A program made the position numbers and the translations under genes. A stretch of 64,000 nt of DNA from a virus. The notes under the pieces were generated by a model that was not told where the DNA came from, did not search any database, and was given only the letters and a program-made list of their open reading frames with translations. Positions within the stretch are counted from its first letter, which is position 1. The number at the start of each line of letters is the position of its first letter. Location of the stretch: the IMG/VR virus record IMGVR_UViG_3300045988_172839, positions 64,001-128,000 of that record. One strand, 5' to 3'. Positions 16,275-63,719 of the stretch are shown one piece after another.

Positions 16275-17591
16275 TTAAAAACTATCAAACATATCAACCA
16301 TTTGGTCTGTAGACATTGGTTTTAAATCCAACTGCGCTTTTGCAATCGTGTTTTCATGGTGCGCTGCTTTGTCTTCCTTATGTTTTTGAGACATTTGTTT
16401 GCTTTCTAAAACCCTCTCATTGCCTTTAATCTCATTAACTTCAATACCTACAGAAGAGATTGAAGAAACGGAAGGAGTTGGAGCAAGCAAACCTCGATAC
16501 CCAAGGAGAAGTAACTGAGTTTCAATATCCCCTCGACCTAGGTTATTCAAAAACTCTAAAAGAGCCAAAATTTCTTCATTGTTGAATTTGTCAAATAAAT
16601 CTTTGTATAGCTTTAGTTCATCTTTGGTAATACCCAACACATGAAGCCCCAATGAAATGTAAAGACCTCTCTTAACAAACTCTCTCAAACCCTCAACAAA
16701 GTTCTTCAAACCAATTTCTAACATAGCAGTGTGTACTGTTTTTGTATAAAGAACTGTGTTCTTTGTTCTTAGGTAGTCTAAGAAATCAAAGTACAAACCT
16801 CTGTGCTTATTTACATCAAGAACTGCAACCACATCATCATAGCGAACCGAACCATAAGAACGGTACACATTCTCTAGTTGTTTTAAGGACTGACGGAAAA
16901 CACAATTTGAACGAACTGCAATCAACTCCAAAGCCGGTTTCTCGAAGGCGAAACCTTCTTCAGTCGATACCCAAGTCATAAGGTTCACATTATCTGCTAC
17001 GCTAGGTAACTCAATCTCAATCTTCAAATCCATACGAGTTTTCAAAGGCTCTAACATCTTCTGTGGGTCAGTCGTACAGAAGAAAAAGATAGACTTAGGT
17101 GGGGCATCTTCAGTAAACTTCAACATACTTTCTTGACCTGCTTTGGAAATCAAGTGACACTCATCAAAGATAAAAATAGAATACCCTGCAAATAGTTTAG
17201 GCATGGAAGCAGACTCTACAAACTGTCGGACTGCATCTACGTTCCCTGTTTTTGAAGAGTCCAATTCTTTAACTGAGAACAAATGTGTGGCATCTGCCGT
17301 CTCAATATAGTCATTCAAGTCTTGACACATCTTACATTGGTTGCAAGGTAACAAATACTCTCTATTCTTCCACTTACGGACTTGTTTATTCTCACACAAG
17401 ACCAACTTAGTAGACATACGAGCCATAGTTGTTTTACCACAACCACTTGCGCCTGAAATCATCACACAAGCTGGGTAGTCTTCTCCATCTTTAGAAGAAA
17501 AGCGGTTCAAAAGCTTTTGAACTGCTAACTCATTTCCGATATAGCGGTCTACATCTTTTGACCTGTATTTCGTTGCGAAATTTTCAGCCAT
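16275..17591 (-). CDS. AAA+ clamp-loader ATPase, DNA polymerase III gamma/tau (DnaX)-like
   Basis: Walker A is GASGCGKTT, and a zinc-module-like CNQCKMC follows. Walker B / DExx is IFIFDECH. The sensor region is FFFCTTDPQKMLEPLKTRM. The N-terminus YRSKDVDRYIGNE is typical of RFC/DnaX box II. Confidence 0.75.
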   Translation of the reverse strand: MAENFATKYRSKDVDRYIGNELAVQKLLNRFSSKDGEDYPACVMISGASGCGKTTMARMSTKLVLCENKQVRKWKNREYLLPCNQCKMCQDLNDYIETADATHLFSVKELDSSKTGNVDAVRQFVESASMPKLFAGYSIFIFDECHLISKAGQESMLKFTEDAPPKSIFFFCTTDPQKMLEPLKTRMDLKIEIELPSVADNVNLMTWVSTEEGFAFEKPALELIAVRSNCVFRQSLKQLENVYRSYGSVRYDDVVAVLDVNKHRGLYFDFLDYLRTKNTVLYTKTVHTAMLEIGLKNFVEGLREFVKRGLYISLGLHVLGITKDELKLYKDLFDKFNNEEILALLEFLNNLGRGDIETQLLLLGYRGLLAPTPSVSSISSVGIEVNEIKGNERVLESKQMSQKHKEDKAAHHENTIAKAQLDLKPMSTDQMVDMFDSF

Positions 17592-37461: not shown

Positions 37462-40400
37462 TTATCTATCTTCTTTGCGCTTTCTTCCAAGGAAAGACAA
37501 ACCAAGTAAAGCAAGTAAACCATACCCACCTACTGAAAGTGCAGCCGTGTCTCCACCACCTGTATTTGGAAGTTGTGGAGTTTTTGGTGTTGGTTTAGTT
37601 GGTGTTGGTGGAACATCAGTGCGTGTCTTAACAGTATTTGAAGAAACTTCGATACCGTTAACAATGTGTGACACCTTGTTCTCAACCTCACCGGCTTGAA
37701 TACGAGTCATTTCAACAAAGACATCAGCTTGGAACTCAGAGTCTTTCGTGATTGAACGCAAGAACTCTTCTTTTAGACCAATTTCAAGCTGGCCTTTAGC
37801 TTTATCTTCTTTCAACCAAGCGTAAGTAGTTAAGTCATCGCCTGCTTTGAAGTGTTTACCATCAGCAGTTACAAAATCACGTTTTGCAATTACTTTATAC
37901 TTACCATCAAAACGGTCATGAGTTTCTTGGTAGTCATCTACAAACTTGTACTCGAACAAGTCATCCGCACGGTTACTTGGAATAAGTGTTCCTGTAAATG
38001 AATAGTAGAAGATTTGACCTAAAGTAATCTTTTGACCATCTTTAGACTCTTTATCTCCAATAGAAATCACAACATCTTTCTTAGTTTCAAACTTAGGAAT
38101 GTTGTTTACTACTGTTGTAGTCACCTCTGCAACTCCAAAGTCAATTTGATAAGCAGTATTTTCATACTTACCACCAGTTTTACCGAACTGTTCTTTGATT
38201 TTCATTGGATTAATAATGGTAATTGTGTCACCTGTTTGAACATACTTAGCGTAGAACTCTTCAGGATTTTCAGCTTCCCAAACTTGGAAGGCACCTTTAG
38301 GTTTAAATCCACGCTCAATTAAAGCATTACGAACTACTTCTGGTGCTTTTTCAATACTTTCATAAATAGTGTATTTCAAACCTTTCACTTCTTGACCTTT
38401 AGAGTCAGAAAGTTTAATACCATCAGAAAGTACATCTAACACATCTTCTGGATAATCATCAGCAATAAAGAAACCTTGTGCAATACGAGATTTGTCAGCT
38501 TGGATACCCTTGTATTGTGAGTAATCAGCAGTTACATGATAGTAGTTAGTTGATCCTGCAAATACTTGCTTACCATCAATGTTTACTCCAACCTTGTCGA
38601 AATTTGCTTTCTTAGGATTTGGTTTCACTACTTTGTTCACTACTGTTTCTGTTACCATTGCAAGACCAAAATCAAGTTGGTAAGCAGTATTCTTATACTC
38701 AGCTACTTTACCTAACATTTCTTTACGAACTGTCATAGGATTAGTAATTGTAAGAACCTCACCTGTCTTCACATACTTGTCGTAGAACTCAGTTGGGTTT
38801 TCAGCAGTTAAGACTTGAATAGCACCTTTAGGTGTATAACCTGCAGATTTAAGTGACTCTTGAACTCCTTTCGGAGCGTCTGCAAGTGTCTTGTAAACAG
38901 TTGACTTCAAACCAGTTACAAGGTTGCCTTTAGAATCTTTTACAACAATCTCATTCTCATTGACTGAAACTGCTTCTTCTGGGAAATCATCAACAATGTG
39001 GAAACCGTTCGCAATTCTGTTAGCGTCCGCTTCGATTCCTTTATAAGCACTATAATCAGCAGTTAATGTGTAATAGTTGACTGTTCCAGCTACTACTGGT
39101 TTACCATTAATACTTACACCGGCTTTATTCAAGTTCTTCTTGTGTGGGTTTGTTTTAGGTACACTATTTGAAACAGTTTCAGTTTCAGCAACCAAACCAA
39201 AATCAAGTTGATAAGCCGTATTTTGGTACTTAGCTCCCGTTTGATTTAACTTAGCAGAAACCGTCATAGGGTTTTTAACAGTCAACGTTTCCCCTGTTTT
39301 CACATACTTATTGTAATAAGCAACTGGATCAACCGCTTCAAAGACTTGAATAGCACCTTTAGGTTGAATATTTCTCTTAGCAAAGGCTTTTTGAACCTTT
39401 TCAGGAGCATCTGCTAAAGAGTTGTAGATAGTTTGTTTCAAACCTTCTACTTCATTACCTTTAGAATCAAGAACTTTCACATCTTTTTCATTGATAGATA
39501 CCACATCTTCTGGGAAATCATCTGCAATAAAGAAACCATTTTGAATTTTGTCTTCATCTGCTTCAATACTTTTGTATTGGTCATAACGAACAGTCAACTC
39601 ATAATAGTTAGTAGACCCTGCAAGAACTTGTTTACCATTGATGTTAACATGAGCAGCGTTAAAGTTTGCCTTATTAGGTTTAGGAGCTGGCACACTGTTT
39701 ACAACTGTCTCAGTCACTTTAGCAGAACCAAAGTCAAGTTGGTAAGCAGTATTTTCATACTTAGCACCTGTTTGGTTCAAGTGAGCTTTAACTGTCATTG
39801 GTACAGTAAGTGTAAGCACTTCACCTGCACGAACATACTTATTGTAAAACTCAGTACGATTTTCAAATTCAATAACTTGAATAGCACCTTTTGGTTGATA
39901 CCCTTGAAGTTTGAGAGCATCTTGCACCTCTTTAGGTGCATCTGCTACCGATTTATAAACCTTAGAAGTATAACCTTTTACTGCTTGACCTTTAGAGTCA
40001 ACTACCTTAATACCGTTAGTGTCAATATCTACTGCTTCTTCTGGATAATCATCCACAAAGTAGAAACCTTTCGCTACACGGTCTTTTTCAGCTTCAATTC
40101 CTTTATAATCAGAATAATCAGCAGTTAATGTGTAGTAGTTCGTAGAGCCTGCAAGAACTTGTTTACCGTTGATGTCAACACCTTTGGCATTCAAGTTTTT
40201 CTTATGTGGATCTGTTTTAGGTACACGATTTTCTACAATGTCAGCTTGGTAGCCATTACCAAAGTCTACTTGGTAAGCAGTATTTTGATATGATGCACCT
40301 TTACGGTCAAGTGACTGTTTCACCCTCATTGAGTCAACAATCGTTACAGAATTACCTTTAGAAACGTATTTATCAAAGAACTCTTGAGGGTTATCAGCCA

Positions 40401-43400
40401 TGAAGACTTGGAAAGCACCTTTAGGTTTGATACCACTAGTTTCAAGAATGGCTTTGATTTTAGGGTCTTTTACTTCTTCAATAGAGTTAAAGTGGTACTC
40501 AGTGATACCCTTAACTTCTGCACCGTTAGAATCGAATGCGCGAATTTCTCCACGCTCAATATCAAGCGCTTCTTCTGGGTAATCTTCTACAACACCAAAA
40601 CCTTTTTGAATAGCATCAGAACCACCCTTAATACCTTTGTACTTACTGTAGTCCATTGTTACATGGTAGTAATTCACTGAACCTGCAAGAACTTGTTTAC
40701 CATCAATTTTCACACCATCTTTATTGTAGTTTACTTTCACTGGTTTTGTTCCACCAGGTGTTGTAACTTCTACAATATTAGAATAAACTTCGTATTTGTT
40801 ATTCAAGTTCAAATGGAAGTTATTCTTATAAACAGCGTTATCATTTGTAACCTCTCCGTAAACCTTCAAAACTGGTACGTTGTAAGCAGTTGACAGATTT
40901 GCATTTATCTTATCGATACCACTCTTTTTCAGTACCCCTGTTAAACGGTGTGCTGACTCATCATAAGTAATAGTGTAGTCACTATTTTGAGCTTGAGTTT
41001 TAGCAAGGTTTAACTGATACCCTTGTGGTAAATTATCATGAATTTCGTAAACCTCAGTAACTTCGCGGTTTCTTGGAAGTGGTTTAGTTTCTAACTCCCA
41101 AACAACCTCAGACATCTTAGGTACATTGGATTTGTTGATGTTTGCTCCAAGATTGTTCTTAACATACTTCTCAACTTCTGGTGTTGTTTTCAACAAAGCA
41201 TAGCGAACATGAATAGTTCTAGGTGAAATCGGAGTTGGTACTGGTTTCTCCACTGGTTTCGGAGGAGCTGGAGGGAGAGGAACATGAGGTACATCTGGTG
41301 TCTCTGTAGGTAGAGGTTTCAATGGATTCTCTACTGGAGGTACAATAGGAGTTTTATCCTTCTCGTTGTACTTAGGTTCATTTGGTTTCTTCTCAGTAAA
41401 CTCACTTGGTTTAGGTGGCTCTTTAGGGAGAGGAACATGACCCACCTCAGTTGGTCTTTCAACTGGAGGTTTCTCCGGTGTAGGCACTGGTTTATTTAAA
41501 GTGTCTTTCTCTTTCTGTTTAAGCTCTGGAACTTCTGGTGGATTTGGAACCTCTGGTGGAACCAATTTCTTAACAACCGATTTTCCACCCCAAAGTTGGA
41601 AAGCGTACCCTGCTGCATAAAGTTCAAAATCTGTTTGAATCTTACGACCGTAGAACTTATCCTCATAGTCCGTAACTCGACGGTATTCTCTCGCTTGAGC
41701 TTCTGTGTAGGTCTGGGTACCACGAAGACCTTCAGCCAAATAGGTTAACTTATGAACAGCACCTTTACCTACAGTTAAAATTGTACCTTTAGGTGTATCA
41801 AAGAAGTCGTTCACGTCTGTATAATAAGGATCACCAGCTTTCCAACGTTTCAAACCAGTATCATCATCTGAAGTGTGAGTACCATCTGAGTGGATACCCA
41901 TCCAAACCTGTTTCCCTTTATAAGTAGTACGAGCCACTTCTGAACCTGGAGGGTTAATTACTGCACCTGTATCTTCATCAGTATTGTAAGTATGACGAAC
42001 AGCTTGAGTATAGTCCAAGTCTGCATAAATTGTAGTAGTACCTAAATTTAAAGGTCTACCCGTTGCTTCATCATAATAATGAATATCCCACTCATTATTC
42101 AAGTAGTTATATGGGTTAAAACCAATAGGAGAAATCGGGCCTTGACTACCATCTTTATACCACCAAACCCATAAACGAGTGTAAGTATCTTTATTACCTG
42201 GAATATCAAAACTCTTAGAAGGAGTTGTTCTTGACACTAATCGAGCAGAAATCGTTTTACCTGTCGTTGTACGACCTACATTATGCAAAGTGAAGGTCGA
42301 ACCTTGTTTGATACCGGTGATGATTTTTCCACCTAAACGCTCAGTGTTACCATACAAACCTTTTGCAACGTTAGGGTCTTCTTGAAGGTCTTTATCTAAA
42401 GTTAAAGTCGTCTTAGAATTAGCACCTAAAGCACCTTCAACTACTTCTAAACCTTTCTCTGGTGTGAAAACTGCAGTAACATCAGAGTAGTAATCCATAG
42501 AACCACGTTTAGACTCATTCAAAGTACCGTAAAGTGTTACCCCATTCCCTTGAGCTAAAATAGGTTTTTTCTTAACCTCATCAACTTCACGATTATAAGT
42601 TTTTAACTCTTCTTCATAAGTAGCTTTAGCTAACTTATAACGAGTCATAGCTGCATCATACTTATCTTGCTCTGCTTTGTTTTCTTTATCAATCTGAGCG
42701 TTTCGTTTATTTAACTCAGCTAATGCAGACTCATAAGCAGCTTGCGCAGTTGAGTTTGCTTTACGAATAGCTTCATTCTCTTTATTTCGAGCTTCCACTG
42801 CTTTCGTATAAGCATCTTTGTTCGCCTTGTTGGTTTTATCAATCTCAGCGTTCCGAGTATTCGCAACCTCTAAATCTTTACGATATTGCTCCAGCTTTTG
42901 ACGATAAGTAGTCATATCTGCGTCAGATTGAGTTTTACGCTCAGTCCATTTACCTAATTCAGACTCATAAGCTGACTTAGCGGCTGCATTGTCTTTGTCG
43001 ATTTGAGCATTTTTCGCAACTTGATCTGCTACTGCTTTTTCATAGCGAGATTTAGCAGCTTGATTATCTTTCTTGATTTGCTCATTTTCAGACTTAATAG
43101 CTTCTACCTTAGCTAAATGTTGCTCATGTTTTACTTGATTGTTTTTATCAATTTGAGCATTTTTATCATTAGCCGTTTTTAAATCTGTTTGATATTTCGC
43201 TTGAGCATCTTCATAGTCTTTCTTAGCTTTTGCATTTTCTTCTTTAACAATCTTAATTTCTTGGTTACGAGTTGCAACCTCTTCTTTAAAACGGTCAGCT
43301 TCTTTCTTCACAACTTCTGCTTGGTTGTCATAATTTTGCTCAATCTCTTTTTGGCGTTTCTCCAAATCAGAAGAACTTGTTGCAGTACCACCATCTGCTG

Positions 43401-43713
43401 GCGCATCAACAACAACATTCAAACCTGCAGCTTTCGCTTCGGATACCGCATTATCTACCTTGTTACGGTTGACGGTTACATCAAGTGTACCTTCTTTAGC
43501 TTTAGCGCTTTCTTGGCTTTCTAAAGCACTAGGAGTTGGTGCGTTTTGTACTTGTTTGGCATTTGTAGCATTATTTGTTACTTCATCCGCACTTACAGTA
43601 CCACTACTTAAAGCAGTACCCAAAGCTGCAAGACCGAGAATAACACCACAAGCACCATAATGTTTCACTTTACGGATACTTCCGTATGTTTTTGTTTCTG
43701 CACTTCTGCTCAT
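37462..43713 (-). CDS. Antigen I/II-family LPXTG adhesin (2083 aa) with expanded C-terminal domain array
   Basis: YSIRK-type signal (KTYGSIRKVKHYG...). Ala-rich A-region repeats contain a recurring KNAQIDK(N/D/E)N motif (about nt 42559-43356). The V-region-like globular domain lies at about 41563-42555. The proline-rich P region (PPEVPNPPEVPE ... PLPPAPPKP) lies at about 41218-41562. Five tandem 177 aa domains and a terminal domain follow. The sorting signal is LPNTG (37558-37572) followed by a TM helix and RKRKEDR. Confidence 0.8.
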   Translation of the reverse strand: MSRSAETKTYGSIRKVKHYGACGVILGLAALGTALSSGTVSADEVTNNATNAKQVQNAPTPSALESQESAKAKEGTLDVTVNRNKVDNAVSEAKAAGLNVVVDAPADGGTATSSSDLEKRQKEIEQNYDNQAEVVKKEADRFKEEVATRNQEIKIVKEENAKAKKDYEDAQAKYQTDLKTANDKNAQIDKNNQVKHEQHLAKVEAIKSENEQIKKDNQAAKSRYEKAVADQVAKNAQIDKDNAAAKSAYESELGKWTERKTQSDADMTTYRQKLEQYRKDLEVANTRNAEIDKTNKANKDAYTKAVEARNKENEAIRKANSTAQAAYESALAELNKRNAQIDKENKAEQDKYDAAMTRYKLAKATYEEELKTYNREVDEVKKKPILAQGNGVTLYGTLNESKRGSMDYYSDVTAVFTPEKGLEVVEGALGANSKTTLTLDKDLQEDPNVAKGLYGNTERLGGKIITGIKQGSTFTLHNVGRTTTGKTISARLVSRTTPSKSFDIPGNKDTYTRLWVWWYKDGSQGPISPIGFNPYNYLNNEWDIHYYDEATGRPLNLGTTTIYADLDYTQAVRHTYNTDEDTGAVINPPGSEVARTTYKGKQVWMGIHSDGTHTSDDDTGLKRWKAGDPYYTDVNDFFDTPKGTILTVGKGAVHKLTYLAEGLRGTQTYTEAQAREYRRVTDYEDKFYGRKIQTDFELYAAGYAFQLWGGKSVVKKLVPPEVPNPPEVPELKQKEKDTLNKPVPTPEKPPVERPTEVGHVPLPKEPPKPSEFTEKKPNEPKYNEKDKTPIVPPVENPLKPLPTETPDVPHVPLPPAPPKPVEKPVPTPISPRTIHVRYALLKTTPEVEKYVKNNLGANINKSNVPKMSEVVWELETKPLPRNREVTEVYEIHDNLPQGYQLNLAKTQAQNSDYTITYDESAHRLTGVLKKSGIDKINANLSTAYNVPVLKVYGEVTNDNAVYKNNFHLNLNNKYEVYSNIVEVTTPGGTKPVKVNYNKDGVKIDGKQVLAGSVNYYHVTMDYSKYKGIKGGSDAIQKGFGVVEDYPEEALDIERGEIRAFDSNGAEVKGITEYHFNSIEEVKDPKIKAILETSGIKPKGAFQVFMADNPQEFFDKYVSKGNSVTIVDSMRVKQSLDRKGASYQNTAYQVDFGNGYQADIVENRVPKTDPHKKNLNAKGVDINGKQVLAGSTNYYTLTADYSDYKGIEAEKDRVAKGFYFVDDYPEEAVDIDTNGIKVVDSKGQAVKGYTSKVYKSVADAPKEVQDALKLQGYQPKGAIQVIEFENRTEFYNKYVRAGEVLTLTVPMTVKAHLNQTGAKYENTAYQLDFGSAKVTETVVNSVPAPKPNKANFNAAHVNINGKQVLAGSTNYYELTVRYDQYKSIEADEDKIQNGFFIADDFPEDVVSINEKDVKVLDSKGNEVEGLKQTIYNSLADAPEKVQKAFAKRNIQPKGAIQVFEAVDPVAYYNKYVKTGETLTVKNPMTVSAKLNQTGAKYQNTAYQLDFGLVAETETVSNSVPKTNPHKKNLNKAGVSINGKPVVAGTVNYYTLTADYSAYKGIEADANRIANGFHIVDDFPEEAVSVNENEIVVKDSKGNLVTGLKSTVYKTLADAPKGVQESLKSAGYTPKGAIQVLTAENPTEFYDKYVKTGEVLTITNPMTVRKEMLGKVAEYKNTAYQLDFGLAMVTETVVNKVVKPNPKKANFDKVGVNIDGKQVFAGSTNYYHVTADYSQYKGIQADKSRIAQGFFIADDYPEDVLDVLSDGIKLSDSKGQEVKGLKYTIYESIEKAPEVVRNALIERGFKPKGAFQVWEAENPEEFYAKYVQTGDTITIINPMKIKEQFGKTGGKYENTAYQIDFGVAEVTTTVVNNIPKFETKKDVVISIGDKESKDGQKITLGQIFYYSFTGTLIPSNRADDLFEYKFVDDYQETHDRFDGKYKVIAKRDFVTADGKHFKAGDDLTTYAWLKEDKAKGQLEIGLKEEFLRSITKDSEFQADVFVEMTRIQAGEVENKVSHIVNGIEVSSNTVKTRTDVPPTPTKPTPKTPQLPNTGGGDTAALSVGGYGLLALLGLSFLGRKRKEDR
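38074..40731 (-). repeat. Five tandem, diverged 531 bp coding repeats (177 aa AgI/II C-domain-like modules)
   Basis: The repeats start at residues about 995, 1173, 1350, 1527 and 1704. Each carries N(L/F)N..GV.I(N/D)GKQVLAGS.NYY ... PKGA(I/F)QV ... Y(E/Q)NTAYQ(L/V/I)DFG. Confidence 0.8.
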
Positions 43714-51929: not shown

Positions 51930-51958
51930 ATTGTAGCAAAAATAAAAAGAAAAGTCAA
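51930..51958 (-). promoter_or_regulatory. Sigma-A promoter with extended -10; -35 embedded in the nrdF terminator stem
   Basis: On the minus strand: TTGACT (51958-51953), a 17 bp spacer, then TGCTACAAT (-10 at 51935-51930). Confidence 0.7.
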
Positions 51959-51973
51959 GAATAAATCTTGACT
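51941..51973 (-). terminator. Rho-independent terminator of nrdF
   Basis: On the minus strand: AGTCAAGA, loop TTTAT, TCTTGACT, then TTTCTTTTTATT. Confidence 0.7.
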
Positions 51974-51980
51974 CTTTTTC

Positions 51981-54900
51981 TTATAAACCAACCATATAAT
52001 CGCTATCTTCCATAGCTTCAACTTGACCGAGAAGATACCCATTCCCAACTTGCGAGAAGAAATCATGGTTGGAAGTACCCGTTGAAATACCATTCATAAT
52101 GATAGGGTTAACATCATCTGCTGAATCTGGGAAGAGTGGATCTTGTCCTAGGTTCATAAGAGCCTTATTGGCATTGTAACGAAGGAAAGTCTTCACTTCT
52201 TCTGTCCAACCAATTTCATCATATAACTCTTCTGTGTACCTCTCCTCATTTTCATACAGAGTGTAGAGCAAGTCGTACATCCACGCTTTTAATTCTTCTT
52301 GTTCTTCCTCAGATAGCTCATTAAAAGCGAGTTGGAACTTATAGCCAATATAAGTACCGTGAACACTATTTCCAGTTATAACTACAGAGCCACTTTGACT
52401 ACGAGTTACCAAATACCCTGAAGGAACTTGGATACCGTAAATCTGCTCACCTTCAAGCTCAGTTCGTGTCACCGCAGCACCATAACTAGTGGAACCATTA
52501 GGTAAAATAGTTAAAGAATAATTAACAAGACCCTCTGCACTAAATGGTGAACGATCTTCAAACTCTCTAATACGAGTTTTATAACCAATTAAACTACACA
52601 AGGCTTGCACATAATCTATACTCTCTTTATTTATAGAGCAATATCTATAAGAGTTATCACTACATTTAGCACCTACCCAATCAAACAGTGTTTCCAAATA
52701 TTGTAAGCACCATTTAAAGTCTACTTCATTCAAAGGGCGTTTAGGTAAAGACTTCAACTTACTCTCTTCGATACCGAATTGGTTAAATTTAGAAATACGG
52801 AGTACAGTTCCATTTCCTTCGGGATAAGAATATTCCTTGTAAGTTATATCTAAAGACTCCAACAAATCTTTCATCTTTGCAATAATCTCTGGTTTACTAC
52901 TGCTCAATACCAGATGTTTACTTAAAGCACTTTCTACTACCGTTCCAAATTTAGACAAACAAATATATAAATCTTCCCATTTAGATAAAGGTTCTACCTT
53001 AGAGTTTGGAGATAAAACCTCAGTAGGATGCAACCAATAAGAGCTACTACCTAAAGTTAAATCCGCTGGCCGAGTAATCAATTTATCACTAGTCAAAGCT
53101 TTACGAATAAGTCTGTGATTAGGTGTACATTTTAAATCAACATAACCAAGTTTAGACTTAAACTGATAAATCTTAGGTGCAAAATCCGTTGAAATCGTAG
53201 AAACTGGTGCAAAATTCGTTCTGCGAGTTTCTTTATCAAACTGCAAGACCAAGTCTTGTGGGCGAATATCGGCTACGGATACCCAACCTTTAGGTGTTAG
53301 CACCTCTTGGTCTTTTGTCATGCACTCATCTCGAATAATAAGCTTAATAATCTCAGCCACATTAGGGAGTTTGTTGTTTCCTAAGTACCATAAAGGTGTA
53401 AAGAAACCAGAGTAGAAAAGGAAAGACTCTAGGAAGACACTTGCTACTTTCTTTTGAAGTGGGGTTCCATTGTCATAAACCTCTTTGATAATCTCTGCTT
53501 TCTTCTGCAAATATGGGTTGTTGGCAGTCCACTCAAAAATTTCTTCAATCTCAGACTTGGTGTTCAATGTGGAGAATATTGAGGAGTAGGACTTGGCGTG
53601 GACACAGTTGCCTGAGATAATAGTTTTTCGACCTGCAGATACCACTAGAAACTGCGAGGGAACTTCAACACCATAGACTTCTTCACCTTCCAGTTTCTCA
53701 AACGATAAACTTTGAAGTTGGACATCACGTTGATTTTCAGATGATAAAATACGAACATAGTAATTATCACTATACTTTTCAGATCTATCATCTATGTTTA
53801 CACCTGAGTTATGAGTATAACCTGCTAAAGTGCTAAGAACTTTAACAAAATTCGCGTTTTCAATTTCTTTTGTATAATAAGAAATATAACCTCTTGAACC
53901 ATCTTCATTATAGTGAACATGAGAGTCCCATAAAGAAAGCTCTTCAATAAATTGCTGTGCTTTCTCTGCATTGAAATCAGAAAAAGAGAACCAATTATTT
54001 AACACTTTAGGTTTTAAGTTCAAAGAACCTAACATTGTAAAAGGTACAAATACATTAAAGTTCCTTTGTGGTTTACATTTACCTGAACCTAGTTTACCGT
54101 TAATTTCCTTATAAGATATACCCGAATCTTCGCATAACTTTAATAATTTTGCTATCTTGGGCTCTTTAGAAAAACTAAACCGAATAGTAAAAGTTTCAGT
54201 TTTTAAACGAGGATCCTTATCTCGATATTGTTGAATCCGTTTAATTTCCCTCTCAGTAATAGACCCATCTGCTTGGAAAGCAATCAATAACTTCTCAAAA
54301 GGAGTTAAAAGGGAAACTGAAGTTTGTGTAACAAAAGGTCTCACTAAAGGTACGCGTCGATAAGCAGTTTTAGGAAGTTTCACAAAATCCTCAGCAGTTA
54401 CAACTCCGTATTTATAAGACTTCCATGCATCTAATGGAGAACCGGATTTTAAAGAAGTCTCTTCAAAAAGCATGCGGTGTCCGGGAGATACCCTTAAATC
54501 TACTGCTGAATTATATATCCGCTCAATATGAGGTGCTTTGTGTTTAGATGTTTTTATAACCTTTTCAAACCTTGTAGTTTCTGTCTTTGGGTCATAAGCC
54601 AAAATAGTATCACCTTCAACAATATCCGCAATCGGAACCCAACCTCTATCAATCGTTAGAAGTTTATGGTCTTTCGTATAGCACTCCATAAACTCAATAT
54701 TGTTTAACACTGCTTCTTCATGCTGTGTACGAACATCTGGTTTAATTGCGGATACCCCGTCAACCGACTGCAACGTATCTAACAAGGTCAACCCACCAAA
54801 GACTTTAACTACTAAATCTCTTTCTTTTTCAGGCAACTTGCGCCAATCATCTAAATCATTAGACAAAGGAATACGAGTATCTAACCAAAATTGTTCAGTT

Positions 54901-55013
54901 AGTTTTTCCCAAGTTGCTTTATCAACTACGTCCTCAATGGCGTTCCAATTTATCGCCTTGTAAAAATCTGGTTCTTGTGTCAAATCCTTCTCACTTTCTA
55001 ATCGTAATCTCAT
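51981..55013 (-). CDS. nrdF: Class Ib ribonucleotide reductase beta subunit (NrdF) precursor containing two inteins
   Basis: The extein sequence is typical of NrdF: INWN, FWLDTRIPLSNDLDDW, VFGGLTLLDTLQ, HEEAVLNNIEFME / VHAKSYSSIF, FLESFLFYSGFF, IRDE / SVHGTYIGYKF. Removing residues 111-469 and 564-882 leaves a 332 aa protein of normal NrdF length. Confidence 0.9.
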   Translation of the reverse strand: MRLRLESEKDLTQEPDFYKAINWNAIEDVVDKATWEKLTEQFWLDTRIPLSNDLDDWRKLPEKERDLVVKVFGGLTLLDTLQSVDGVSAIKPDVRTQHEEAVLNNIEFMECYTKDHKLLTIDRGWVPIADIVEGDTILAYDPKTETTRFEKVIKTSKHKAPHIERIYNSAVDLRVSPGHRMLFEETSLKSGSPLDAWKSYKYGVVTAEDFVKLPKTAYRRVPLVRPFVTQTSVSLLTPFEKLLIAFQADGSITEREIKRIQQYRDKDPRLKTETFTIRFSFSKEPKIAKLLKLCEDSGISYKEINGKLGSGKCKPQRNFNVFVPFTMLGSLNLKPKVLNNWFSFSDFNAEKAQQFIEELSLWDSHVHYNEDGSRGYISYYTKEIENANFVKVLSTLAGYTHNSGVNIDDRSEKYSDNYYVRILSSENQRDVQLQSLSFEKLEGEEVYGVEVPSQFLVVSAGRKTIISGNCVHAKSYSSIFSTLNTKSEIEEIFEWTANNPYLQKKAEIIKEVYDNGTPLQKKVASVFLESFLFYSGFFTPLWYLGNNKLPNVAEIIKLIIRDECMTKDQEVLTPKGWVSVADIRPQDLVLQFDKETRRTNFAPVSTISTDFAPKIYQFKSKLGYVDLKCTPNHRLIRKALTSDKLITRPADLTLGSSSYWLHPTEVLSPNSKVEPLSKWEDLYICLSKFGTVVESALSKHLVLSSSKPEIIAKMKDLLESLDITYKEYSYPEGNGTVLRISKFNQFGIEESKLKSLPKRPLNEVDFKWCLQYLETLFDWVGAKCSDNSYRYCSINKESIDYVQALCSLIGYKTRIREFEDRSPFSAEGLVNYSLTILPNGSTSYGAAVTRTELEGEQIYGIQVPSGYLVTRSQSGSVVITGNSVHGTYIGYKFQLAFNELSEEEQEELKAWMYDLLYTLYENEERYTEELYDEIGWTEEVKTFLRYNANKALMNLGQDPLFPDSADDVNPIIMNGISTGTSNHDFFSQVGNGYLLGQVEAMEDSDYMVGL
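52368..53324 (-). mobile_element. Intein 2 (319 aa) in nrdF, with degenerate LAGLIDADG-type endonuclease insert
   Basis: It starts with Cys right after IRDE (CMTKDQEVLTPKGWVSVADI), has block B KCTPNHRL, and ends VVITGN followed by +1 Ser (SVHG). The central region has LAGLIDADG-like remnants (YLETLFDWVG). Confidence 0.8.
53607..54683 (-). mobile_element. Intein 1 (359 aa) in nrdF, with LAGLIDADG-type homing endonuclease domain
   Basis: It starts with Cys right after FME (CYTKDHKLLTIDRGWVPIADI), has block B VSPGHRM, endonuclease motifs LLIAFQADGS and ELSLWDS, and ends TIISGN followed by +1 Cys (CVHAKSY). Confidence 0.8.
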
Positions 55014-55320
55014 TTGTAAAATCGTTTTGCAAAACTCGGAAATGAACCTCAGTTATTGCACCACTCTGATGAAGATTGTATAGATTAAAATGCACATACC
55101 GTAAAAAGTAGACTTCATCTTTGGTTAAGAATAGGTCATTTAAGTAGTGAAATTCTAACCAATTTAAAGTCTTTTCAATCTCAGCACATCTAAAACTTTT
55201 CAATTTAGTAAGAGGTGTCTTTAATTCTGTATCAAAGGCATATAAAAATGATAAAGCTAAAGACTCACTTGTGATTGGTATAGAGGAAACATCAAAAGAA
55301 ACAATAAGTTGCTTAATCAT
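54991..55320 (-). CDS. Hypothetical protein (109 aa)
   Basis: AAAGG RBS before the ATG. Its 3' end overlaps the nrdF start by 23 nt. Confidence 0.6.
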   Translation of the reverse strand: MIKQLIVSFDVSSIPITSESLALSFLYAFDTELKTPLTKLKSFRCAEIEKTLNWLEFHYLNDLFLTKDEVYFLRYVHFNLYNLHQSGAITEVHFRVLQNDFTNEITIRK

Positions 55321-55325
55321 GCTAA

Positions 55326-56015
55326 CTACCTTTCTAACTCAATTACAAAGTCAGTTGAAGTTGAACCGAACCAACCGTAGACAGTTCTCTTACCTCTAAT
55401 ATCGCCTATTTTACCTATTGAGTCAGAACCATAATAGATAGTAAAGGGTTTAAACGCTTTAAGTGAACCTTTACGGTATTCTTTTGAACCGCTGCGAACC
55501 TCAGTAGTTAAACTATCAAAGTCTGGTCCTTTCCATCTAAGGTCTTCAGATTTTACTAAAACAATGAACGACTTGGTATCACCTAATAGTGGATCAGAAA
55601 GTTCCTTAGTCACACTACTATACGGAAAATCTTCAATCCGTTCATGATAATCTACGAGAACATGTTTATCAAAATTAAGAGTCTGATATAGGGAACTGAG
55701 AGCAATAATACTCATAAAAAGAAATACAAATTTATTCAACTTTACTAAATTGGAACCGAAATTTGAAGTAAATCCTATATACATTAAAACTAAAGCAAGT
55801 AAAACTACCCCTACAAAATAAAATGTAGCGTAAGACCCAAAAAATACATAAGGAACCATCAAAGGTAAAGATACCGCAAGTGTTATTAAACCTAAATAAA
55901 CCCATTTGTTAGAACTCTCTTTAAGTTGAGACCACAAATACTTTAAATCTTTAGGTTTTTCAGCAATTAGAACCGTGTCTACATGTTCAGTTGTTTCAAT
56001 CATTTTATCGCTCAT
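55326..56015 (-). CDS. Membrane protein (229 aa, 3-4 TM helices)
   Basis: ATG ORF. Helices: WVYLGLITLAVSLPLMVPYVFF, FYFVGVVLLALVLMYIGF, FVFLFMSIIALSSLY. Confidence 0.7.
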   Translation of the reverse strand: MSDKMIETTEHVDTVLIAEKPKDLKYLWSQLKESSNKWVYLGLITLAVSLPLMVPYVFFGSYATFYFVGVVLLALVLMYIGFTSNFGSNLVKLNKFVFLFMSIIALSSLYQTLNFDKHVLVDYHERIEDFPYSSVTKELSDPLLGDTKSFIVLVKSEDLRWKGPDFDSLTTEVRSGSKEYRKGSLKAFKPFTIYYGSDSIGKIGDIRGKRTVYGWFGSTSTDFVIELER

Positions 56016-56021
56016 CTAAAT

Positions 56022-56465
56022 TCAACCTTTCATCATTTCAAAGAACAAAATGGAGAACTCTAACCGTTGCCACAATGTTTCCAATTCACTCTCACAAGTA
56101 AACACAAATTGCTCTAATTGGCGCTTGCGCTCTTCCTTGATACCCTTGGTGTTTTCTGCTAGTGAAAACCACTTATTCTCCAACTGAGTCAAAATAGACA
56201 ATTCTTTCTCAGTCTTAGAACCTTGGCGAAACTGCTCAGTTGCTTTTAGTTCCAGCAAACGGTTTCTGTAAGACTCGGTTAAGAGTTGCGCTTCTTGAAT
56301 TTGGTTCAAGTAAGACAAAATTGTTTTGTCGGATACTAAAACTTTTGTCTTTAAAGCTACTGGGTGGAATTGCTCTCTTGTATGTAAGTAAGCGAAGACC
56401 TTATAAATGTTTTCTTCACGTTTTCCTGCAGAAAGAGAACCCATCTCTCTTAGTTTGTTTGCCAT
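56022..56465 (-). CDS. Hypothetical protein (147 aa)
   Basis: The ATG at 56465 overlaps the upstream TGA (TGATG). The track ORF begins one codon earlier at a TTG. Confidence 0.65.
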   Translation of the reverse strand: MANKLREMGSLSAGKREENIYKVFAYLHTREQFHPVALKTKVLVSDKTILSYLNQIQEAQLLTESYRNRLLELKATEQFRQGSKTEKELSILTQLENKWFSLAENTKGIKEERKRQLEQFVFTCESELETLWQRLEFSILFFEMMKG

Positions 56466-56905
56466 CAATTCTGAACCTCACTTCTATGTTTCGCACTCCG
56501 AATCATCACAACTAGAGAAAGCAAATAGTTTTCGACTAACTTAGCTTTCATAAAGTAAGCAGTTTCAGCTCTTCTTAGTAACCATAATTCTGCTTTATCC
56601 GAATCAGTGAACTCAAAAACTTCATAGAATCCTTTAATTTTTAGATAAAAGTCTTTGTCAGTATGCAGCAAAGAAACTTCGGCTTCTGGTTTAAAAAGAG
56701 AGCCGTCAAAAGTTGTATGATACCCGAAAGCAGAGAGAACAGTTGTAAATTCGATGTCTTTAAAGTTTCTAAAGTACGTATCTAAATGACCAATCTCACG
56801 TTTTTCTTGCTCTACATTTCGAGGTAAGGTTGCGAACTGATTATCCAATACTCTGCGCCATTTTCGACCTAGAATACTAGGTCTTTTCTTAATTTGTTTT
56901 GTCAT
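56465..56905 (-). CDS. Hypothetical basic protein (146 aa)
   Basis: ATG ORF and the first gene after the promoter at 56943-56971. Confidence 0.65.
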   Translation of the reverse strand: MTKQIKKRPSILGRKWRRVLDNQFATLPRNVEQEKREIGHLDTYFRNFKDIEFTTVLSAFGYHTTFDGSLFKPEAEVSLLHTDKDFYLKIKGFYEVFEFTDSDKAELWLLRRAETAYFMKAKLVENYLLSLVVMIRSAKHRSEVQN

Positions 56906-56942
56906 AGATTGATAGTCTTTCTAAGAAAATTTTTATACTTTC

Positions 56943-56971
56943 ATTTTAACAAAAAATAAAAAGAAAGTCAA
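56943..56971 (-). promoter_or_regulatory. Sigma-A promoter with extended -10; -35 embedded in the preceding terminator stem
   Basis: On the minus strand: TTGACT (56971-56966), a 17 bp spacer, then TGTTAAAAT (-10 at 56948-56943). Confidence 0.7.
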
Positions 56972-56987
56972 GGGAAAATGACTTTCT
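56951..56987 (-). terminator. Rho-independent terminator
   Basis: On the minus strand: AGAAAGTCA, loop TTTTCCCT, TGACTTTCT, then TTTTATTTTTT. Confidence 0.7.
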
Positions 56988-56995
56988 TTATTAGG

Positions 56996-57727
56996 TTAAA
57001 TGCGAATTTGATAAGAAGTTGCGGCTTGGAAAAACTCAGCAAAACCGTAGTCGGAAAGACAGAACGATACCGAATTGGGTAGCCAAACATCTAAATTAAG
57101 TGGAATCACATAAGTTTCTGCGAATCTACAGAACTTACTGTAAAGACGGTTTGCTTTGAGGACTTGCTCTAAGGTTTGAGTTGGGTCTGCAACCAAAATA
57201 TGATGCGAGTGTTTCAACTCACTTAGAATATTGGTGTATTGATTCAAGTTCAAATCGGGATTATCTATATCGAAAATGTAGTCAGCCTTGTAGTAATCAA
57301 GACGAGTCTTCAACTTAGAAAAGTCATAAATATTCGGTAGGATAAAGTTACTTAAATCTTGTAAATCCTTTTCTCTTGTGGAGTAGAACTTCATGATTGC
57401 TAAGTCCTCCCAGGATAAGACAAGAACAGTTAAGTTTGAATAGTTTAACTCTTTATCAAAGGAAACCTCAGAAATATCTGGAACTACGAAAATCTTTTCG
57501 ACATCATTAGAGAGTTGAAAAGTTTGTAGTTGTTCAACCGTCAAAGGTAAAGAACCAATATAATCAATATCTCTAGTTTCTCTATATCCACCTGAAAGTA
57601 AAGATACCGCAGAGCCACCTGTGACAAAAATTTTAGCAAATTTATCTTGACGTTCTAGTTCTAAATTTAGTTGATTTAACTTCTCTAAAATCTTAGTGTA
57701 AGACAACGTTTGATAAGGTAAAAACAT
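56996..57727 (-). CDS. Nucleotidyltransferase-fold protein, AbiEii/DUF6036-like (putative)
   Basis: AGGAG lies 6 nt before the ATG. IFVTGGSAVSLLSGGYRETRDIDYIGS matches the G-[GS] ... D-x-D minimal NTase signature, in the arrangement seen in AbiEii-type toxins. Confidence 0.5.
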   Translation of the reverse strand: MFLPYQTLSYTKILEKLNQLNLELERQDKFAKIFVTGGSAVSLLSGGYRETRDIDYIGSLPLTVEQLQTFQLSNDVEKIFVVPDISEVSFDKELNYSNLTVLVLSWEDLAIMKFYSTREKDLQDLSNFILPNIYDFSKLKTRLDYYKADYIFDIDNPDLNLNQYTNILSELKHSHHILVADPTQTLEQVLKANRLYSKFCRFAETYVIPLNLDVWLPNSVSFCLSDYGFAEFFQAATSYQIRI

Positions 57728-57941
57728 CTTCTTCTCCTAATTCTTGTGCAAAGGTACGAGTAGACCAAACCCTCTTTGGTAAATGAATAGAGCCACTTAA
57801 AACTAATTGACAATTTTCCTCAGACTCAAGCCAATTTAAAGCATCAAGCGTTTCTTTTTGCCTTGGTTTGTCCAACGAAAAGTACAAAACTTCGTGCCTT
57901 AGAATTAGGCGCATTTTTTCGATTAAATCAAGTTTTTCCAT
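57693..57941 (-). CDS. Hypothetical protein (82 aa) overlapping the NTase gene start
   Basis: AAGGAT RBS before the ATG. Its 3' end overlaps the downstream gene by 35 nt. Confidence 0.5.
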   Translation of the reverse strand: MEKLDLIEKMRLILRHEVLYFSLDKPRQKETLDALNWLESEENCQLVLSGSIHLPKRVWSTRTFAQELGEEDVFTLSNVVLH

Positions 57942-57974
57942 ATTAAGACATCCTTCTTAACAAATTAGTGTAAC

Positions 57975-58003
57975 CTAAACAGAAAACAAGCTCAAGGCTT
58001 GTT
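57975..58003 (-). terminator. Rho-independent terminator
   Basis: On the minus strand: AACAAGC, loop CTTGA, GCTTGTT, then TTCTGTTTAGG. Confidence 0.55.
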
Positions 58004-58014
58004 AAGTATAAATC

Positions 58015-58419
58015 CTAAGCTGGTAATAAATTACGAATAAACCGATTTGAAACACCGCTAACATAAGTTTCGATAGACGTATCAAAATACTGAGCTAGTT
58101 TTTGTAATAAATCTAATGAACTATCCATGTCTAGTACACAAATACACGTTTTAGACAAACCTAATCCCCCACTCTCAGTTACATTTTCTTCCACGGTAGA
58201 GTAAGATAAAGTAAACTCATCGCATAGATACCGAAGTGTGTACTTGTTCGAAGTCACATAGGTAAGGAAAGCAGTACGTGACTCAGATAAGTCACAACTA
58301 TCATAAGAGAAAGACTTGAGAGAACTGGTAACTACTTCAACTCCAAAACTCTTTAAAAGTCGAAATAAATCGGATTCTTCTAATACCCCAACAATAGAAA
58401 TAAGTGAACGAGAAAACAT
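58015..58419 (-). CDS. Hypothetical protein (134 aa)
   Basis: GGAG lies 10 nt before the ATG at 58419 (MFSRSLISIVG...). The track ORF starts at a TTG at 58443. Confidence 0.6.
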   Translation of the reverse strand: MFSRSLISIVGVLEESDLFRLLKSFGVEVVTSSLKSFSYDSCDLSESRTAFLTYVTSNKYTLRYLCDEFTLSYSTVEENVTESGGLGLSKTCICVLDMDSSLDLLQKLAQYFDTSIETYVSGVSNRFIRNLLPA

Positions 58420-58559
58420 AATAAAATCTCCAAAAATAACCAAATTAAATTTAAACGCTCTAATTGTCTCCGTATCGCATTTTAAATCTTTGAGGGGTAA
58501 TTATACCTCTTTGATATTTAAGACGAAACTGGAGCAAATTAGGACGGTTTACGGACGAG

Positions 58560-62600: not shown

Positions 62601-63719
62601 TTATCCTTTCTCTACTAAAGCTTTTACAATAGCCGCAATAACTGGTGGGCTTACAGAATTACCTACTTGCTTATACATCTGATTCCTACTTGTACCGCAC
62701 TCTTGGATGTTCTTCACAAACTCAAGTGGATACCCTTGTGCTAGGAAACACTCAACCTCAGTTAATTTCCTTACTCTTAAACCTAAATCATCAGATAACA
62801 TAATTCGAGGAGAATCTTGACGAGCAGTAATCGTAGGAGCTAAACCTTTTACTGAGTGGACTCTACGATATTGCTCTAAGTTTTTATGTACTTCCCTAGG
62901 TAACAACCCTAAACGTAAAATCGAGTTAGTTCTAGGTAAAGTCAAACCAAATTCAAAATCCTTTAAATAAAGCCTATCTTCTGGTTTAGTTATTTGATAA
63001 TGCGTATCGTCTACAAAAGGCTCCACTATATCTTCCAAAACAGATGTAGTATCACTAGGTTTTAAAGAATTAAACATATTAAAACTTGGAAACAGAGGTT
63101 CTGTTAAGTTTGCTAATGTAACAGAACTTAACTCCTTTTTCAACTTGTTAATACGAGAAGACCACTTATCTTCCTCATACAAAGAACTCTCACCTTTATA
63201 GATACCACAAATAAAGGTTCTTTCTCTAATTTGAGGAACACCAAAATCCTTAGAGTTTAAAACTGTAAAGTCTATCACATAATCTAATTCAGCTAAAGAA
63301 TCTAAAATAACTCTGAAAGTCTTACCATTATCATGACTGACTAAGTTCTTTACATTCTCTAAAAGGAAGTATTTTGGTCGCTTTTCTTTTAAGATACATA
63401 AGACATCAAAGAATAACGTACCCCTAGTGTCTTCAAAACCTTTTCGTTGACCTGCAATCGAAAAAGCTTGACAAGGAAAACCATCAACCAATAAGTCATG
63501 GTCTGGTATATCTCTTTCATCAACTTTAGTTATATCTCCAATTAAGACACTACTATCAAAATTTGCACCATAAGATTGTTGTGCAAATTTATCAATTTCT
63601 GAAGCAAAGACAACCTTATGTGGAATATTTGCTAAACGCAACCCCTCTTCAAAACCACCGATACCACTAAATAAGGAAACTACTCTTAATTCACTCAATT
63701 TATATCTCTTCACTAGCAA
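62601..63719 (-). CDS. dcm: DNA (cytosine-5)-methyltransferase
   Basis: The canonical C5-MTase motifs are present: I LFSGIGGF, IV GFPCQAFSIAG, VI ENVKNL, VIII QIRERTF and X GNSVSPPV. The start is uncertain: TTG at 63719, or TTG at 63698, which has a better RBS. Confidence 0.9.
   Translation of the reverse strand: MLVKRYKLSELRVVSLFSGIGGFEEGLRLANIPHKVVFASEIDKFAQQSYGANFDSSVLIGDITKVDERDIPDHDLLVDGFPCQAFSIAGQRKGFEDTRGTLFFDVLCILKEKRPKYFLLENVKNLVSHDNGKTFRVILDSLAELDYVIDFTVLNSKDFGVPQIRERTFICGIYKGESSLYEEDKWSSRINKLKKELSSVTLANLTEPLFPSFNMFNSLKPSDTTSVLEDIVEPFVDDTHYQITKPEDRLYLKDFEFGLTLPRTNSILRLGLLPREVHKNLEQYRRVHSVKGLAPTITARQDSPRIMLSDDLGLRVRKLTEVECFLAQGYPLEFVKNIQECGTSRNQMYKQVGNSVSPPVIAAIVKALVEKG

Follow-up and report, generated by a model that had tools for sequence, protein, structure and literature searches.

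The 64,000-nucleotide stretch of virus record IMGVR_UViG_3300045988_172839 (IMG/VR) analyzed here, comprising positions 64,001 to 128,000 of that record and referred to below as the window, carries on its minus strand an nrdF gene for the beta subunit of a class Ib ribonucleotide reductase (RNR), within which two inteins are encoded. The arrangement of the gene, in window coordinates, is as follows.

51981..55013, minus strand: nrdF precursor open reading frame (ORF), class Ib RNR beta subunit plus two inteins, 1010 aa plus stop codon
54684..55013, minus strand: N-extein, aa 1-110, its last residues being NNIEFME (Glu of the first ExxH)
53607..54683, minus strand: intein 1, 359 aa, HINT plus LAGLIDADG; Cys1, block B SPGH-R, block F VYG, SGN end
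54261..54290, minus strand: LAGLIDADG motif 1 of intein 1 (LLIAFQADGS), catalytic Asp kept
53916..53942, minus strand: LAGLIDADG motif 2 of intein 1 (ELSLWDSHV), catalytic Asp kept
53325..53606, minus strand: middle extein, aa 470-563, starting CVHAKSY (+1 Cys, ligand His, radical Tyr), containing FLESFLFYSGF and ending IIRDE
52368..53324, minus strand: intein 2, 319 aa, HINT plus degenerate LAGLIDADG; Cys1, block B TPNH-R, block F IYG, TGN end
52941..52970, minus strand: remnant of LAGLIDADG motif 1 in intein 2 (LYICLSKFGT), Phe replacing the catalytic Asp
52665..52691, minus strand: remnant of LAGLIDADG motif 2 in intein 2 (TLFDWVGAK), Val replacing the catalytic Asp
51984..52367, minus strand: C-extein, aa 883-1010, with SVHGTY at its start (+1 Ser and the His ligand of the second ExxH)

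Two inteins interrupt the metal-ligand motifs of NrdF

The junctions of intein 1 (aa 111-469, window 53607-54683) read NNIEFME↓CYTKDHK...TIISGN↓CVHAKSY, and those of intein 2 (aa 564-882, window 52368-53324) read LIIRDE↓CMTKDQE...VVITGN↓SVHGTY, where the arrow marks the splice junction. When compared with the Pfam profile Ribonuc_red_sm, the 1010-aa precursor aligns in three pieces, with breaks at profile positions 91 and 194 (the middle piece spanning 91-194), and the predicted spliced product of 332 aa covers profile positions 1-281 (E 6e-94). The best PDB matches of the spliced protein are NrdF/R2F entries, among which 4n83, which we take to be the NrdF of Streptococcus sanguinis, was matched at E 1e-185. 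Alignments of the spliced protein with 4n83, 1kgn, and 9l6o are gap-free across FMESVHAKSYS and IRDESVHG(T/Y)YIGYK, and because they run uninterrupted through both junctions, each intein can be placed directly after the Glu of an ExxH motif. On the 1kgn row, the two motifs count as E108/H111 and E202/H205, presumably the ligand numbers of Corynebacterium ammoniagenes R2F. In di-iron carboxylate proteins, a pseudo-twofold symmetry within the ferritin-like bundle relates the helices that bear these motifs. The insertion points proposed in a first-pass annotation of the window, namely, exactly after both ligand glutamates of NrdF, are thus borne out by three structures and by Pfam.

All R2 ligand segments are retained in the exteins (LLDTLQS, FME-C-V-H-AKSY, FLESFLFYSGF, and IRDE-S-V-H), and the spliced NrdF keeps the six metal ligands (Asp/Glu/His/Glu/Glu/His) as well as the radical Tyr, located four residues past the first His. 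The +1 residue of site 1, to which the first-pass annotation had also drawn attention, is Cys in the window nrdF and Ser in 4n83, 1kgn, and 9l6o; across intein-less NrdF proteins, Ser, Gln, or Ala is found at this position. For annotation purposes, the 1010-aa product represents NrdF plus two inteins, with a mature protein of 332 aa.

Architecture of the inteins and state of their endonucleases

The hallmarks of inteins are present in both insertions: intein 1 possesses C1, an SPGH block B, N359, and a +1 Cys, and intein 2 possesses C1, a TPNH block B, N319, and a +1 Ser. The usual intein histidines at the penultimate position (G:6) and in block F (F:13) are found in neither, Gly occupying G:6 in both. 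An AF2 model of intein 1 (pLDDT 87.6, pTM 0.85) was matched by Foldseek to the TliVMA intein (E 1e-15) and PI-SceI (E 2e-14, TMq 0.61), as well as to I-DmoI, I-SceI, and HINT domains, including that of AceL NrdHF, while the weaker model of intein 2 (pLDDT 73.2) returned the same set of matches, with I-DmoI at a TMt of 0.62. Both models match intein, Hedgehog, and BIL structures through the HINT fold and I-DmoI, I-SceI, and PI-SceI through the LAGLIDADG fold. PI-SceI and TliVMA, the top Foldseek matches for both models, share with the window inteins an architecture of HINT with a nested LAGLIDADG domain but differ from them in host and in sequence (11-14% identity); they also have the canonical penultimate His.

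With regard to sequence profiles, Pfam LAGLIDADG_3 matched the precursor at 33.1 bits (cut-off 22.5), and Hint_2 scored the inteins alone at 16-23 bits, under its cut-off of 28.4. Membership among the inteins, therefore, rests on the motifs, the models, and the match of a profile of site-1 inteins to PDB 6ZGQ, the AceL NrdHF intein, at 9e-14. A profile built from the two window inteins detected 2540 protein clusters at E<=1e-3, from the best matches of which a family sample of 141 full-length inteins was assembled; as the 150 sequences retrieved were obtained with the window-intein profile, this sample is biased. In a six-frame translation of the window, the family hidden Markov model yielded only two matches, corresponding to the two intein loci (2.9e-91 and 3.9e-73).

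Within the family sample, Asp occupies the two catalytic LAGLIDADG columns in 133/141 and 129/141 inteins. Both aspartates are kept in intein 1 (IAFQADGS and LWDSH) and both are gone from intein 2 (CLSKFGT and FDWVGA), a loss (to Phe and Val) that is shared by the whole intein 2 clade. The endonuclease motifs of intein 1 are thus intact and the endonuclease of intein 2 appears to be dead, consistent with the degeneracy of intein 2 suggested earlier.

The Gly-Asn end and the predicted splicing route

The first-pass annotation correctly pointed out that the penultimate His is missing from both inteins, yet this feature does not represent a special link between them, since a Gly-Asn end is present in 138/141 family inteins, has been described in the literature, and is compatible with fast splicing. 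The AceL NrdHF intein, whose native flanks are SIRDE↓SMHVE, has neither the block F His nor the penultimate one, yet its splicing takes place within minutes (PMC7891396). In that intein, the residue that follows the block B His, Arg69, is in contact with the C-scissile carbonyl, and splicing is slowed by R69A and abolished by G145H, the latter through a clash with Arg69 (PMC7891396). The class 1 intein of mycobacteriophage Bethlehem gp51 (RDF), one of several phage class 1 inteins that lack a penultimate His, likewise has a penultimate Gly and splices fully, its G316H mutant being slower (Kelley et al. 2016, PMC5050341); it resides in a different host protein and is likened to the window inteins by its penultimate Gly and not by sequence family. 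Within the family sample, the block B His is present in 140/141 inteins and is directly followed by Arg in 86/141, including both window inteins (SPGH-R-M in intein 1 and TPNH-R-L in intein 2). Both the Gly-Asn end, as a trait of this family, and the residue that compensates for it were already known.

Block F:4 is Cys in 116/141 family inteins, 111 of which also possess Cys1; in both window inteins, F:4 is Gly and position 1 is Cys. The features that define class 3, i.e., an F:4 Cys branch point, Thr at G:5, and usually no position-1 nucleophile, are not found in this combination in either of them, and because F:4 is Gly and not Cys, the class 3 route is excluded for both. The window inteins are, therefore, predicted to follow the class 1 route and would represent relatives of a class 3 intein that are themselves unable to use the class 3 mechanism. 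Those family members which start with Ala (Darwin, P0024, and P0038) all have an F:4 Cys.

According to the proposed mechanism, the 1010-aa precursor would splice twice, rebuilding both E-x-x-H metal-ligand helices and yielding a 332-aa NrdF that reads E-C-V-H and E-S-V-H. In each event, Cys1 would form a thioester and the N-extein would be transferred onto the +1 Cys (intein 1) or the +1 Ser (intein 2), following which the terminal Asn would cyclize and an acyl shift would restore the peptide bond. The Arg after the block B His may cover for the missing penultimate His, as in AceL NrdHF, and the small penultimate Gly may be needed as room for this Arg.

Intein 1 is polymorphic and intein 2 is fixed among close nrdF alleles

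A survey of related nrdF genes for empty sites, as advocated in the first-pass annotation, was performed on 28 full-length alleles from two 90% clusters, those of the window protein (151 members, on contigs of up to 247 kb) and of P0023. Intein 2 is present in 28/28 alleles, and intein 1 is present in 13/28, site 1 being empty in the remaining 15/28 (FME↓SVH, FME↓QVH, FVE↓SVH, FME↓AIH, or FIE↓SVH). Every allele with intein 1 carries the identical flank NNIEFME↓...↓CVHAKSYS. Between P0176 (with intein 1) and P0177 (without it), 13/655 residues differ, 11 of which lie within -27..+35 of site 1 (P = 3.6e-10), and at the DNA level 22 differences per 100 nt were observed within -100..+120 nt of site 1, compared to 1.3 in the adjoining 900 nt to either side. 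The differences between close alleles that have and that lack intein 1 are almost confined to a tract of ~220 nt around site 1, and this divergent patch has the look of homing with co-conversion of flanks.

Other states of the two sites occur beyond these close alleles. In the distant relatives P0004, P0005, P0007, and P0010-18, site 1 is occupied and site 2 is empty; L006 combines an empty site 1 with a different site-2 intein whose endonuclease is intact, and P0003 carries a degenerate site-1 intein together with this same other site-2 intein. Furthermore, five other distant R2 proteins contain two family inteins (P0025, P0035, P0059, P0077, and P0030). P0025, P0035, and P0059 break at Pfam profile positions ~93 and ~193, as does the window nrdF, so that at least three other distant R2 proteins harbor inteins at both motifs; in P0077 and P0030, one or both inteins lie at a nearby, different position, the junctions of P0077 reading differently from those of the window nrdF and the first intein of P0030, a glutaredoxin-R2 fusion (NrdHF-like), being located at profile position ~63.

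In light of these data, we consider it very probable that the window nrdF, borne by a large Streptococcus-like mobile element, is interrupted by two separate, independently acquired class 1 inteins of the AceL NrdHF family which have reached different stages of homing. Intein 2 would be old, fixed in the element family, and devoid of a functional endonuclease, whereas intein 1 would be still, or would recently have been, homing into empty FME↓SVH alleles, carrying along its +1 Cys codon and, to the left and right of the site, ~100 nt of flanking sequence each. A polymorphic intein 1 beside a fixed, endonuclease-dead intein 2 would provide a natural study system in which two stages of the homing cycle are represented in one gene.

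Alternative explanations for the paired inteins

In the first-pass annotation, the inteins were regarded as paralogues, one intein having colonized the symmetry-related ExxH site of the same gene; such a duplication within the nrdF lineage would make them recent paralogues. The resemblance underlying this proposal is visible in our alignments: the inteins are homologous over their full length (27% identity, 87 bits, E 8e-24), their splicing domains are 39% identical, they share the features of block A (TKD..LT..GWV..ADI), block B, and block F (VYG.(E/Q)VPS) and the Gly-Asn end, and both sites read E↓(C/S)VH. In addition, the point estimate of a neighbor-joining (NJ) tree of the family inteins (200 bootstraps) sets the two clades side by side. 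The evolutionary reading finds support only in a weak, ancient sense; a recent jump within the window nrdF is not supported by the sequence comparisons. No nucleotide similarity was detected between the inteins (best blastn E 0.13, with 44.6% identity over aligned codons), and dozens of inteins in other proteins score higher, intein 2 ranking 96th of the 141 by BLAST for intein 1 and intein 1 ranking 40th for intein 2. Intein 1 falls within a clade of nine site-1 NrdF inteins (bootstrap 0.975), and other NrdF genes, among them that of phage Darwin, hold relatives of it at the same site, the Darwin intein outscoring intein 2 against intein 1 (130 vs 87 bits); intein 2 clusters with its P0023 orthologue and an ectopic copy (bootstrap 1.0), and the union of the two clades receives a bootstrap of 0.005. 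Close alleles, moreover, hold intein 2 beside an untouched, empty site 1, the two DNA targets agree at only 15/30 positions, a match equaled or bettered at 415 other window positions, and the partners are likewise distant from each other in 4/5 of the other double-intein R2 proteins, being close relatives only in P0035. A recent paralogous origin is, therefore, regarded as highly improbable. The use of one endonuclease for both sites was considered and appears unlikely given the same target comparison, and gene conversion between the two inteins is ruled out by the lack of nucleotide similarity. An older switch of sites, which would be compatible with independent acquisition by the window gene, merits greater consideration and is regarded as a real, if tentative, possibility. 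Under this scenario, an R2-specific subgroup of the family (Cys1, F:4 Gly, and VYG.(E/Q)VPS) has switched between motif 1 and motif 2 on one or more occasions. All 24 of the F:4-Gly inteins among the 141 (24/24) reside in R2 proteins, at motif 1 or 2 except for P0061, the site of which is unmapped, and when only splicing domains are compared, the top 17 matches of intein 1 all belong to this subgroup, with both sites mixed. The best non-allelic splicing-domain matches of intein 2 similarly include the site-1 inteins P0006 and P0003 (44 and 43%) and the site-2 intein P0033 (43%). A clade with a bootstrap of 0.78 also mixes R2 motif-2 inteins with DE↓CH-site inteins of other proteins, indicating that the family does change sites (P0063, a DE↓CH-site host outside the set of this clade, is a ResIII/Helicase_C helicase). 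Conversely, the F:4-Gly subgroup does not form a clade, the best Gly-enriched clade reaching 0.165 without the intein 2 group, the change from Cys to Gly requires a single base and could recur, and the sample is biased by the query profile. The deep branches of the NJ trees (full length and splicing domain) have bootstraps below 0.2, and no claim is made as to their order. More speculatively, and in our estimation somewhat unlikely, the R2-specific subgroup may have arisen from class-3-type ancestors that lost the F:4 Cys and then crossed between the pseudo-symmetric helices, guided by the E↓(C/S)xH protein context (-1 Glu, +1 nucleophile, and +3 His) needed for histidine-free splicing and not by similarity of DNA targets. 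If this were true, R2 would constitute a natural case in which internal protein symmetry, and not the endonuclease target, sets the location of an intein.

Two further explanations concern the activity of the gene. The ORF could be a decaying pseudogene that is open by chance, one or both inteins no longer splicing, as might be suspected from the truncated or interrupted nrdF copies of sister elements, the dead endonuclease of intein 2, and the absence of nrdE nearby among the large window ORFs. Loss of endonuclease activity, however, does not affect splicing, and relative to the P0023 lineage, in which both inteins are likewise present, the exteins show a dN/dS of 0.05 at a dS of 0.77, compared to 0.17 for intein 1 and 0.24 for intein 2, the splicing domains (0.13-0.20) being the lowest part of the inteins. 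As the splicing residues are also intact in all 13 double-intein alleles, and as the metal ligands and the radical Tyr are kept, decay is considered very unlikely; the extein dN/dS value in particular argues that spliced NrdF is made and used, being hard to explain otherwise. Similarly improbable, in our judgment, is that the inteins are regulatory and render NrdF maturation metal or redox dependent, with the -1 Glu, the +3 His, and Cys1/+1 Cys serving as sensor. Such a role would agree with the occurrence of -1 Glu/Asp in 110/141 and of His at +2 or +3 in 107/141 family inteins, and with the findings that E-1A and D-2A slow splicing of AceL NrdHF and that H+3A slows Asn cyclization relative to the other steps (PMC7891396). 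This flank pattern is, however, equally well explained by a few conserved targets (R2 ExxH motifs and DExH helicases) being counted repeatedly, and intein-free alleles and host genes work without such control.

Several observations nonetheless weigh against the proposal of two independently acquired, functional inteins. The full-length NJ tree does place their clades side by side, albeit with 0.5% bootstrap support, and because of this adjacency, the similarity of the splicing domains, and the common membership of the F:4-Gly subgroup, a distant common origin of both inteins at one of the two sites is possible. The case for splicing and for DNA cleavage is drawn from sequence, models, and population patterns. 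Mosaicism is seen in other parts of the elements as well, and the divergent patch proves that intein 1 moved by recombination with its flanks, not that a break was made by its own endonuclease. Finally, nrdF looks dispensable in sister elements, broken copies being found in L007-L010 and L012, and no match to the RNR large subunit (nrdE) was found among the window ORFs of 570-1053 aa, small ORFs not having been scanned for NrdI. In view of the absence of nrdE among the large window ORFs, the product would need the NrdE and NrdI of the host.

Comparison with known inteins

The closest characterized relative is the AceL NrdHF split intein (PDB 6ZGQ; Hoffmann et al., ChemBioChem, PMC7891396), which likewise interrupts a class Ib RNR beta subunit, is inserted at the site of intein 2, after the Glu of the second ExxH (SIRDE↓SMHVE), and belongs to the same sequence family, as judged from the profile match described above. 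It resembles the window inteins in its block B (S-P-N-H-R-M), in the absence of the F:13 and penultimate histidines, and in its Gly-Asn end (G145 and N146, as evident from the mutants G145H and N146A). It differs from them in being naturally split, with a GIY-YIG gene between its halves, whereas the window inteins are contiguous and contain LAGLIDADG domains, and in starting with Ala and following the class 3 route via Cys124 (F:4), whereas the window inteins have Cys1 and an F:4 Gly.

Among phages, the best match of intein 1 is the NrdF intein of Corynebacterium phage Darwin (NC_042086, gp74, annotated as “ribonucleotide reductase + intein”), which occupies the intein 1 site (SFME↓...VISGN↓CVHARSY) with 29.8% identity and shares the +1 Cys and the SGN end. 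In contrast to intein 1, it starts with Ala and has an F:4 Cys (VYCVQVPS), being class-3-like, and it resides in an actinobacterial phage. NrdB inteins of the same family are located after the first-ExxH Glu (AFSE↓...↓TIHSRSY) in Pectobacterium phages CB7, phiTE, and PcCB7V and in Vibrio phage C-ZP2022, and at the second motif in Tenacibaculum phage PTm1 and Pseudanabaena phage PA-SR01, where the insertion point (E-x↓C-H) lies one residue away from that of intein 2; the hosts of these phage inteins are class Ia NrdB proteins and not NrdF. The CB7 NrdB intein is mentioned in PMC7344957. All four phage inteins with a mapped C-terminal junction (PcCB7V, PTm1, PA-SR01, and Darwin) end in Gly-Asn, the C-ZP2022 match having stopped before the intein C terminus.

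The window inteins are thus members of a known family in a known host protein and at recorded sites, site 2 having been reported in the AceL NrdHF paper and site 1 being evident from annotated phage genomes. A search of the literature for inteins at both R2 metal motifs returned, apart from the AceL NrdHF paper, only passing mentions of NrdB or beta-subunit inteins. What appears to be new, at least to us, is the recurrence of both R2 ExxH motifs as landing sites of one family, together with the clean presence/absence polymorphism of intein 1 and its co-conversion tract. The general understanding of inteins or of RNR is unchanged by these findings.

Genetic context of nrdF and of its relatives

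The neighbors of nrdF are small hypothetical ORFs. A consensus scan, the only method applied in this instance, identified the following feature directly 3′ of the nrdF stop codon.

51950..51976, minus strand: terminator-like hairpin followed by a T-run

Upstream, a 109-aa ORF (window 54991-55320) overlaps the nrdF start codon (55013) by 23 nt, which suggests translational coupling of the two, and four extra N-terminal residues (MILQ/MILR) are annotated in some nrdF alleles. In the sister elements L007-L010, codons 1-89 of nrdF are missing through a deletion that corresponds to window 54746-58498, and a CGA-to-TGA change precedes site 2, both inteins still being present in the L007 type; in L012, nrdF is truncated after FFTPL. 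L007-L010 and L012 are syntenic with window 51981-58498.

A copy of the intein 2 lineage was also encountered outside nrdF (L006 8001-9011 and L011 644-1570, corresponding to window 55326-56015), where an ORF reading ME↓CMTKAQ...VVITGG replaces most of the homologue of a 229-aa ORF just upstream of nrdF. Because it ends in Gly-Gly, this ectopic copy cannot splice. Its junctions are ATG(G)AG↓TGT and GGT↓GGTTCAA; the latter motif occurs twice in the 229-aa ORF, and L006 and L011 use different copies of it. In the nrdF of L011, site 2 is empty. Among the more distant relatives, P0015 (L015/L016 6001-7686) is a 561-aa NrdF with a shorter intein of ~229 aa at site 1 and an empty site 2, and was detected on 40 contigs (maximum 467 kb), beside SecY, SecG, and sortase genes; its carrier is possibly another giant element type or a small genome.

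Metagenomic contigs of 170-250 kb show synteny with the window. The minus strand encodes nearly every ORF of at least 120 aa, and for most of the large ORFs that were scanned, no Pfam match was obtained. A 2083-aa ORF (37462-43713) has the position and size of the antigen I/II adhesin of relatives L017 and L012, this ORF itself not having been scanned, and other recognizable window ORFs encode an LPXTG protein, a CHAP plus GDSL protein, a C5 DNA methylase, and a clamp-loader-like ATPase (example ORFs are located at 34420-37194, 3069-4781, 62601-63719, and 16275-17591). Relatives also carry N6/N4 methylases. As an unverified guess, the window may form part of a giant streptococcal extrachromosomal “Inocle”-like element (PMC12340149), the description of which fits this context (32% GC, LPXTG proteins, sortase, and a size of >240 kb), although the Inocle paper names neither RNR nor inteins (PMC12340149). 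Megablast searches of the nrdF gene against phage records and of 24 kb of the window against plasmids returned no match, and the site-1 intein profile yielded only two distant Rhodobacteraceae matches among genome contigs. In L020 (9980-11045) and L021 (8889-9968), an IS200/IS605-type pair consisting of a Y1 transposase and an OrfB/TnpB-like gene is located ~3 kb downstream of nrdF.

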